A program made the position numbers and the translations under genes. The notes under the pieces are model-generated. The model worked only from the letters and a program-made list of their open reading frames with translations, had not been told where the DNA came from and made no database searches. Positions 23,535 through 23,840 of a DNA stretch of 64,000 nt are shown here, one piece after another (the stretch's first letter is position 1; each line of letters opens with the position of its first letter). Source of the stretch: Escherichia coli. GTDB taxonomy: Bacteria > Pseudomonadota > Gammaproteobacteria > Enterobacterales > Enterobacteriaceae. The stretch lies in assembly GCF_003334785.1 (NCBI RefSeq), contig NZ_QOWV01000001.1. One strand, written 5' to 3'.

Positions 23535-23840
23535 TTAGCGTGTAGTGGACGTGGTGGTTGAGGTGTTATGAGAACCGCCATCGCCACTGTCATTTGCTGC
23601 AACAACTGCCAACGTCGCCACACCAACAGCCGTTGCCACACCGACAACTGTCGCCGTGCCGACAGCGCCAGCAGCCACGCCACCAGTGGTAGTAGCAGTC
23701 GTGGTTGCGCCGGTAGTGGTCGTTGTGGTGCCAGTAGTACCCGTCGTTGCCTCGGTCCCGTTTGTTGCTTCAGGGGCAGCAAACGCAGCTGGCGTCGTCA
23801 ACATGAAGGCCATAAGGATTGCAGAAAGCTTGTGTTTCAT
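23535..23840 (-). CDS. gfcA: threonine-rich small secreted protein GfcA (about 101 aa)
   Basis: Signal peptide then a Thr/Gly/Ala/Val low-complexity tract; start chosen at MKHKLSAIL, which has an AGGAAA ribosome-binding site; start uncertain by 6 codons. Confidence 0.75.
   Translation of the reverse strand: MKHKLSAILMAFMLTTPAAFAAPEATNGTEATTGTTGTTTTTTGATTTATTTGGVAAGAVGTATVVGVATAVGVATLAVVAANDSGDGGSHNTSTTTSTTR

Follow-up and report, generated by a model that had tools for sequence, protein, structure and literature searches.

The low-complexity tract of Escherichia coli GfcA probably joins a drifted Thr/Gly extension of fixed length to a conserved family core

Ser/Thr-rich O-glycosylated domains, such as mucin-like segments, serine-rich repeat adhesins and acceptors of the PglL type, are Thr-rich, disordered and exported, as GfcA is predicted to be. 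By general knowledge of such domains, GfcA differs in that its mature part has only 80 aa and lacks a dipeptide repeat architecture, and the gfc operon, in contrast to O-glycosylated adhesin systems, has neither a glycosyltransferase gene nor accessory Sec genes linked to it. With simple-sequence contingency loci, and with the in-frame VNTRs known from bacterial surface proteins, gfcA has in common a low-complexity product and in-frame duplication or deletion alleles. Unlike them, gfcA has no perfect repeat array in its standard allele, and its variants are clonal and rare. GfcA also resembles, by analogy only, FapC and FapB with FapF and CsgA with CsgG, in being a small protein, predicted to be unfolded and exported by Sec, that is always co-encoded with an outer-membrane barrel, but it has neither the amyloid repeat architecture of these clients nor sequence similarity to them. 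The YjbE family (PF11106, "exopolysaccharide production protein YjbE") resembles GfcA in gene position, each being encoded directly in front of a gfcB/yjbF homologue. The two proteins agree in layout as well: the signal peptide is followed by an AAG motif, a hydrophobic Gly/Ala/Val stretch, an acidic/Gly turn and, at the C-terminus, a poly-Thr run that ends in R or Q. GfcA stands apart by its 33-aa Thr/Gly extension, by the greater length of its hydrophobic stretch and by a Thr run that is broken (TSTTTSTT instead of T7).

EPEC deleted for gfcA forms no capsule, a defect that gfcA by itself complements (PMC3853201); the protein is otherwise described as "entirely uncharacterized" (PMC11494523). 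Its location has been given as a prediction, "inner membrane or secreted", with possible modification by O-antigen and export via GfcD, and the same work reports predicted export signals on GfcB, GfcC and GfcD, a LolA-like fold for GfcB and a Thr content of 30% for GfcA (PMC8592465). GfcA has also been "predicted to be natively unstructured" (PMC8346858), and FapF, a channel for unfolded peptides, is the protein with which the N-terminal barrel of GfcD/YjbH has been grouped (PMC8346858, PMC9603273). By paralogy, we infer that YjbF, YjbG and YjbH carry export signals as well. Earlier publications cover the GfcA gene, the high Thr content and the idea of O-glycosylation, and the hypervariability that had been predicted for the tract is not there, so that the finding in itself matters little. 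What may be new is a catalogue of alleles, together with the observation that constraint in the family falls on the hydrophobic core and the poly-Thr tail instead of on the N-terminal Thr tract. The constrained GfcA/YjbE elements show which residues to mutate in this uncharacterised capsule component, and the natural length alleles of 96, 101, 107 and 108 aa, now catalogued, are usable in isogenic tests.

The gfcA gene (ymcD) lies on the minus strand of the window, by which we mean the whole stretch of 64,000 nucleotides that was analysed; all features located below by coordinates are on this strand. Its coding sequence at 23535-23840 (101 codons plus stop) was taken from the list of ORFs and matches annotated gfcA at 100%. 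The ORF that contains it extends over 23535-23858, and an in-frame ATG at 23858, 5' of the chosen start, would yield 107 aa. We favour the start at the ATG at 23840 (MKHK..., 101 aa) because a Shine-Dalgarno sequence, AAGGA, can be read at 23847-23851, 6 nt before it; RefSeq annotates the same start in related loci. The resulting product of 101 aa is composed of MKHKLSAILMAFMLTTPAAFA and APEATNGTEATTGTTGTTTTTTGATTTATTTGGVAAGAVGTATVVGVATAVGVATLAVVAANDSGDGGSHNTSTTTSTTR, which adjoin at the predicted signal-peptide cleavage site.

Database searches with 501 nt around gfcA showed 100% identity to two complete E. coli genomes, all matches being annotated as "threonine-rich inner membrane protein GfcA", and 99.8% identity to K-12 and BL21 relatives and to many other genomes. 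A search with gfcA matched 3,673 genomes, 3,665 of them at 95% identity or more. The first-pass annotation of this DNA had named the gene gfcA, and the complete identity to annotated gfcA regions bears this out; by its near-identical sequence and its operon position, the locus is the GfcA/YmcD orthologue.

The gene is the first of gfcABCDE-etp-etk, the operon for the group 4 capsule, downstream of cspH, and the order of ORFs is that of annotated loci. It is followed by gfcB (22784-23428), which encodes a lipoprotein of the YjbF family (ORF list, PF11102 on orthologous loci, RefSeq annotation), by gfcC (22041-22787; ORF list, Pfam GfcC domains on orthologous loci) and by gfcD (19945-22041), which encodes a two-barrel outer-membrane protein of the YjbH family (ORF list, PF06082 on orthologous loci, literature). 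Three ORFs past gfcD on the same strand occupy the positions of gfcE, etp and etk. Both cspH and cspG are present upstream of gfcA. The K-12 locus differs in having an IS1 upstream of gfcA, which the window does not have there. The sole Rfam match is a cspA-type thermoregulator upstream of cspG, and 23380-24300, scanned for promoters and terminators, yielded none. ORFs that overlap the tract in antisense or in other frames were rejected as by-products, as shifted ACN, GGN, GCN and GTN codons cannot make stops.

The segment at 23590-23770 corresponds to codons 30-90 of the 107-aa ORF. Its 61 residues include 22 Thr, 14 Ala, 10 Gly and 9 Val, and 90% of them are T, G, A or V. The best stretch of 61 aa in gfcA reaches 92% TGAV and 38% Thr, and Thr makes up 35% of the mature protein (80 aa). 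Among the ORFs of at least 80 aa that were compared, the next real ORF of the window attains 56% TGAV at best, and none except gfcA exceeds 20% Thr. The description of this segment as a Thr/Gly/Ala/Val low-complexity protein tract is therefore accurate: both strings quoted in its support occur verbatim, and gfcA is a clear outlier among the ORFs of the window. As the overall best explanation, to which we assign a probability of roughly 0.8, this tract would be the central part of GfcA, made up of a drifted Thr/Gly extension of fixed length and a conserved family core.

This reading rests on the behaviour of the individual segments, which were compared with E. albertii and with another Escherichia lineage. 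Codons 1-21 (23778-23840), MKHKLSAILMAFMLTTPAAFA, have the features of a Sec signal peptide, with a K/H N-region, a hydrophobic core and an A-x-A site, and cleavage is predicted between AFA and AP. The signal peptide is conserved across the family alignment and has a pN of 0 against E. albertii; its cleavage site in GfcA is a putative one, deduced from these features. Codons 22-52 (23685-23777) form the Thr/Gly-rich N-terminal extension of the mature protein, which stands out as inserted sequence when aligned with 45 family members. Here, the comparison with E. albertii gave a pN/pS of 0.21/0.44 and 6 gap columns, and AF2 gave pLDDT values of 35-41.

Codons 53-82 (23595-23684) form the conserved core, recognised by conservation and AF2: a GG-V-AAG motif, in which A56, A57 and G58 are conserved in at least 90% of the family, is followed by a hydrophobic Gly/Ala/Val stretch with a predicted helix. 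Against E. albertii, the Gly/Ala/Val core shows a pN/pS of 0.033/0.40 and 0 gap columns. The C-terminal tail, codons 83-101 (23538-23594), NDSGDGGSHNTSTTTSTTR, was delimited by conservation and family comparison and combines an acidic/Gly turn with a poly-Thr end; its pN/pS is 0/0.36, with 1 gap column.

These values do not agree with the view of the "VGVATAVGVATLAVVA" half as a variable low-complexity tract. At a pN/pS of 0.03/0.40 and free of indels against E. albertii, this half is subject to strong purifying selection, and its behaviour is not that of variable low-complexity filler. The Thr/Gly part, as judged by the same comparison, is under relaxed constraint, yet not neutral, with a pN/pS below 1 and its composition kept. 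The fixed length of the tract may stem from a low mutation rate or also from selection. The AF2 model of GfcA, built on an alignment of 46 sequences, is of low confidence (mean pLDDT 46); its sole helix spans residues 60-84 at a pLDDT of about 50-57, and the Thr/Gly extension is predicted to be disordered.

To place these segments in the family, we scanned relatives of GfcB/YjbF at one genome per species, which gave 80 loci across Enterobacterales. A small gene lies directly upstream of gfcB/yjbF in 78 of the 80 loci. The small proteins encoded there follow a common plan, namely a signal peptide, an Ala/Gly/Ser/Thr spacer with an AAG motif, a hydrophobic Gly/Ala/Val/Leu stretch, an acidic/Gly turn and a poly-Thr C-terminus. 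The turn is of the type GGGDGSN in the family and reads NDSGDGGSHN in GfcA, and the poly-Thr end usually closes with Arg or Gln. In the species-level genomes, YjbE has 80-81 aa in all 51 loci, and in all 51 its tail reads GGGDGSNTGTTTTTTTST followed by Q or R. Exactly seven consecutive Thr residues are found in each, encoded by 35 different codon strings; the length of the T7 homopolymer is conserved at the protein level, and synonymous drift is free.

Relative to the family alignment, E. coli carries the Thr/Gly stretch as extra sequence located after the signal peptide and before the AAG motif. The spacer at this position measures 12 aa in Superficieibacter, 18 in an Enterobacter sp., 26-28 in E. 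albertii and 33 in E. coli, and the E. albertii GfcA proteins are 94-96 aa long. A profile search run exhaustively over 1.84 billion cluster representatives retrieved 60 relatives, of which 44 were read; a signal peptide, a hydrophobic stretch and a C-terminal Thr run were common to all 44. Outside the last 20 residues, the Thr fraction is 0.30 in GfcA, whereas the family has a median of 0.08 and reaches 0.15 at most. On this comparison, the N-terminal Thr/Gly tract is an Escherichia-specific extension, and the acidic/Gly turn with the poly-Thr tail, mostly outside 23590-23770, is the hallmark of the family.

Profile searches describe a looser relationship. The PF11106 (YjbE) model matched 34 of the 46 aligned family members but not E. 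coli GfcA, and no usable match came from scanning GfcA against Pfam and NCBIfam. An hhalign comparison of GfcA with YjbE groups reached 95.7% probability with aligned residues 1-40 only, mostly signal peptide. Because GfcA is not scored by PF11106 and the hhalign match covers only residues 1-40, we consider it a divergent YjbE relative by synteny and architecture, and not an HMM-defined member.

The database annotation offers another account, in which GfcA, once its signal peptide is cleaved, is a bitopic inner-membrane protein with a Gly/Ala/Val stop-transfer helix, a periplasmic Thr/Gly stalk and a cytoplasmic poly-Thr tail. The hydrophobic stretch of 25-28 residues is borderline membrane-competent, with a Kyte-Doolittle mean of 2.16 and a Hessa sum of +0.98 kcal/mol (published scale, values entered by hand) over 19 residues. 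The 25-residue helix predicted by AF2 at residues 60-84, clearly hydrophobic stretches of 20 residues in many distant family members and the RefSeq name "inner membrane protein" all agree with this account. However, the flank that would face the cytoplasm is acidic across the family: summed over 44 family members, the 12 positions that follow the hydrophobic window contain 52 D+E versus only 3 K+R, the opposite of a positive-inside flank. YjbE keeps the same tail, yet its stretch is too polar and too short, its Hessa value of +5.2 (same scale) and Kyte-Doolittle mean of 1.24 not being membrane-competent. In the literature searched, the location is offered as a prediction only (PMC8592465), and data on GfcA localisation, topology or modification were not found. 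We regard a bitopic GfcA as a serious possibility that falls somewhat short of even odds.

From the acidic flank, the YjbE stretch and the predicted export signals of GfcB, GfcC and GfcD, we would give about an even chance to the whole of mature GfcA lying outside the cytoplasm, and lean towards this over a bitopic anchor. Under our preferred reading of an extension joined to a family core, GfcA would be exported by Sec and its signal peptide cleaved, after which the conserved hydrophobic stretch and the poly-Thr tail would engage GfcB (the LolA-like lipoprotein), GfcC and GfcD (with its FapF-like N-terminal barrel). The Thr/Gly extension would then act as a flexible hydrophilic spacer whose composition matters more than its exact sequence, and it is probably dispensable.

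The Thr-rich stretches have also been considered as acceptors of O-linked glycans, possibly O-antigen units, in a GfcA that is exported via GfcD and anchors or primes the group 4 capsule. This proposal of Larson et al. (PMC8592465) is compatible with our best explanation. It agrees with the Thr content of the mature protein (35%) and with a poly-Thr tail kept across the family, with the relation of the GfcD N-terminal barrel to the unfolded-peptide transporter FapF (PMC8346858, PMC9603273) and with the report that waaL loss appeared to affect EPEC capsule formation (PMC3853201). On the other hand, neither the gfc operon nor yjbEFGH contains a glycosyltransferase or O-oligosaccharyltransferase gene, and GfcA mass or glycan data were not found in the literature searched. 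Moreover, nearly all family members have no N-terminal Thr tract, so that this tract is not the essential acceptor of the family. We consider glycan acceptance unlikely. A wider proposal would make the GfcA/YjbE proteins fully exported unfolded clients of GfcB/GfcC/GfcD and not inner-membrane proteins; the hydrophobic stretch and tail would insert into or pass through GfcD as a protein anchor or primer of the O-antigen capsule, and the Thr/Gly extension would form a stalk that is exposed at the surface and may bear glycans; we hold this to be quite unlikely.

At the DNA level, the tract had been described as short repetitive DNA built from reiterated ACC/GGT/GTT triplets. Analysis of its 183 nt showed that every 9-mer is unique, that perfect tandems reach 10 nt at most and that exact direct repeats lying within 60 nt reach no more than 8 nt. 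These tandem and direct-repeat values match those of synonymous-codon shuffles, and 24% and 18%, respectively, of random 183-nt windows of the same genome reach them. The Thr codons are mixed (10 ACG, 9 ACC, 7 ACT and 4 ACA); encoding the same peptide with one codon per residue would yield a 26-nt tandem and a 16-nt triplet run. Only the 6-mer redundancy is raised (top 2.5%).

What periodicity there is, is imperfect. The only array reported by Tandem Repeats Finder is a degenerate tandem of 21 nt (7 aa) at 23691-23738, with 2.3 copies and 74% matches, which is a remnant of old duplications. A repeat search also detected three imperfect units of 18 nt (6 aa, xVGVAT) in the hydrophobic stretch (23613-23666), 72-83% identical. 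The degenerate 21- and 18-nt periods and the raised 6-mer redundancy confirm the claim of reiterated triplets weakly; the mixed Thr codons, the unique 9-mers and a tandem of no more than 10 nt speak against it. A perfect or near-perfect array of short units, as a simple-sequence contingency locus needs, was not found in the standard gfcA allele, which has no substrate for slippage.

We then compared the length of gfcA across E. coli, where about 3,590 of 5,426 complete genomes carry it full-length. Because the identity bands of BLAST cannot tell small indels (3-9 nt) from SNPs, we relied on spread sampling and on searches seeded with variant alleles, and the census is not exhaustive in this sense. 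A spread sample over the gene, covering identities of 97.4-100%, contained no length change in 58 matches, and a second sample, obtained with a 116-nt probe on the Thr tract, contained none in 59. Pooled, 0 of 117 matches set an upper bound on length variants of roughly <3%. A protein search by word index was unfit for a length census: its hits were for the most part frameshifted or truncated, the main cluster was missed, and neither the 101-aa nor the 107-aa sequence is contained in that collection in exact form. A shorter gfcA allele surfaced in this protein search, and the variant-seeded searches followed; 33 standard-allele rows listed after the variants in a seeded search have the standard span too.

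Length variants were confirmed in 8 of the approximately 3,590 genomes (about 0.2%), all of them in-frame and all within the Thr/Gly part. Two complete genomes, in which gfcB and gfcC are intact, have the 96-aa allele. By alignment, this allele misses 15 nt, ACCACTACCGGCGCA (23706-23720); ACCAC opens this segment and recurs directly after it. The rare long alleles arise from duplicated units within 23718-23739. Duplication of the 18-nt unit TACTACTGGCACCACAAC (23722-23739) gives the 107-aa allele, found in 5 genomes of one ETEC group, two labelled O169:H41 and one an ETEC isolate, and duplication of the 21-nt unit ACTACTGGCACCACAACGACC (23718-23738) gives the 108-aa allele, found in 1 genome. 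These alleles contain perfect tandems of 36 nt and 50 nt, respectively. Despite the perfect 36-nt tandem, the five 107-aa genomes show no difference over the 161 nt searched.

It had been suggested that tract length may differ between strains and that the tract is prone to slipped-strand variation. It is indeed not identical in all strains, as the 96-, 107- and 108-aa alleles exist, but they are rare, and frequent length polymorphism among related isolates was not found, neither in the 117 spread-sampled matches nor in the eight variants, which are clonal. The expectation of slippage is mostly refuted by the short tandems of the standard allele and by the invariance of the 36-nt-tandem allele in its five genomes. 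Overall, the polymorphism looks like slow in-frame indel evolution and does not look like slipped-strand hypervariability.

A slipped-strand, length-variable locus of the contingency type, in which copy number tunes capsule assembly, is highly improbable: in-frame alleles do exist, in E. coli (96, 107 and 108 aa) and in E. albertii (94-96 aa), with every length change in the Thr/Gly part, their indels bear slippage-type signatures and a degenerate 21-nt periodicity is present, but the standard allele has, like ordinary sequence, no perfect repeat above 10 nt, none of the 117 spread-sampled matches and only 8 of about 3,590 genomes change length, the allele with the perfect 36-nt tandem is identical in five genomes over 161 nt, and the YjbE paralogue keeps 80-81 aa in 51 species-level genomes.

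Under the reading of a drifted extension on a conserved core, the Thr/Gly extension would have grown in Escherichia only, by tandem duplication of 7-aa (21-nt) units that synonymous and non-synonymous drift later scrambled. Because drift would have scrambled the units, the standard allele would no longer be a slippage substrate. The length of the extension would be effectively fixed at the species level, with rare clonal alleles arising by microhomology deletion or tandem duplication. In strain 214-4, one of the 18-nt units of the hydrophobic stretch has been overwritten by its neighbour, which produces a perfect 39-nt tandem.

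Because ACN, GGN, GCN and GTN codons cannot give stops when shifted, a second frame remains open across the Thr/Gly- and Gly/Ala/Val-rich tract of gfcA, forming a 90-aa ORF on the minus strand (window 23510-23782). Many "proteins" of 107-110 aa in public assemblies open with GfcA sequence and then switch to this shifted frame (P0008-P0012 and P0023-P0026 in our protein search). Their switch points differ, and most of them come from short contigs. Most of these products are probably sequencing or assembly frameshifts.

Apparent rearrangements were also found in gfcA loci of other genomes. 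The gene of E. coli strain 214-4 (L013:365-670) has the standard length, but within its Gly/Ala/Val stretch one 18-nt unit has been overwritten by a copy of its neighbour, changing GVATAV to GTATVV and leaving a perfect 39-nt tandem; its Thr tract carries 2 additional substitutions. Either template switching within the gene or faulty assembly could account for the overwriting. A larger change was observed in some E. coli assemblies (loci L001-L003; L001:2441-5851 corresponds to window 17822-23912), where a deletion of about 2.65 kb fuses codon 88 of gfcA to the middle of gfcD. The junction joins window position 23576 to 20921 with an overlap of 11 nt. Both gfcB and gfcC are lost, along with the part of gfcD that encodes the N-terminal barrel, and the fusion yields a chimeric 112-aa "hypothetical protein" (P0002). 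In these three loci, the Thr tract in addition lacks the 15 nt (window 23706-23720) that are deleted in the 96-aa gfcA allele.

Of the 5,426 complete E. coli genomes, about one third (roughly 1,800) either lack a gfcA match altogether or show mere fragments beside gfcB. Five gfcA-matching places in this collection lie on plasmid-labelled records. The gfc promoter region of the window appears intact. In K-12-derived genomes, the alignment to the window stops at position 23873, a break that we take to be the known K-12 IS1 insertion upstream of gfcA. The interval between gfcA and cspH in the window (23859-24281) is without IS1.

At the other end of the operon, etk (window 16237-18306, minus strand) ends at a premature in-frame TAG (16237-16239), derived from the CAG codon of Gln690 by a change at position 16239. 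The last 36 residues of Etk, with the tyrosine cluster at the C-terminus (AGVNIKG...YSYGYNYYGYSYSEKE), are thereby lost; they can still be read in frame beyond the stop (16129-16236). The closest match among the 5,426 complete genomes is 99.7% identical and differs solely at base 16239, so the nonsense mutation looks private to this strain; it may disable the capsule kinase.

We also analyzed YjbE, the GfcA-like small protein encoded upstream of yjbF, in 51 species-level genomes (yjbE loci L045-L095, and also L011:3907-4149). Its length is 80-81 aa in all 51, each with a run of exactly 7 consecutive Thr near the C-terminus, written in 35 different codon strings. The length of this homopolymer is unusually strictly conserved.

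Finally, a cspA thermoregulator (Rfam RF01766, 159 bits) spans the 5' leader and gene start of cspG on the plus strand (window 24624-25046).
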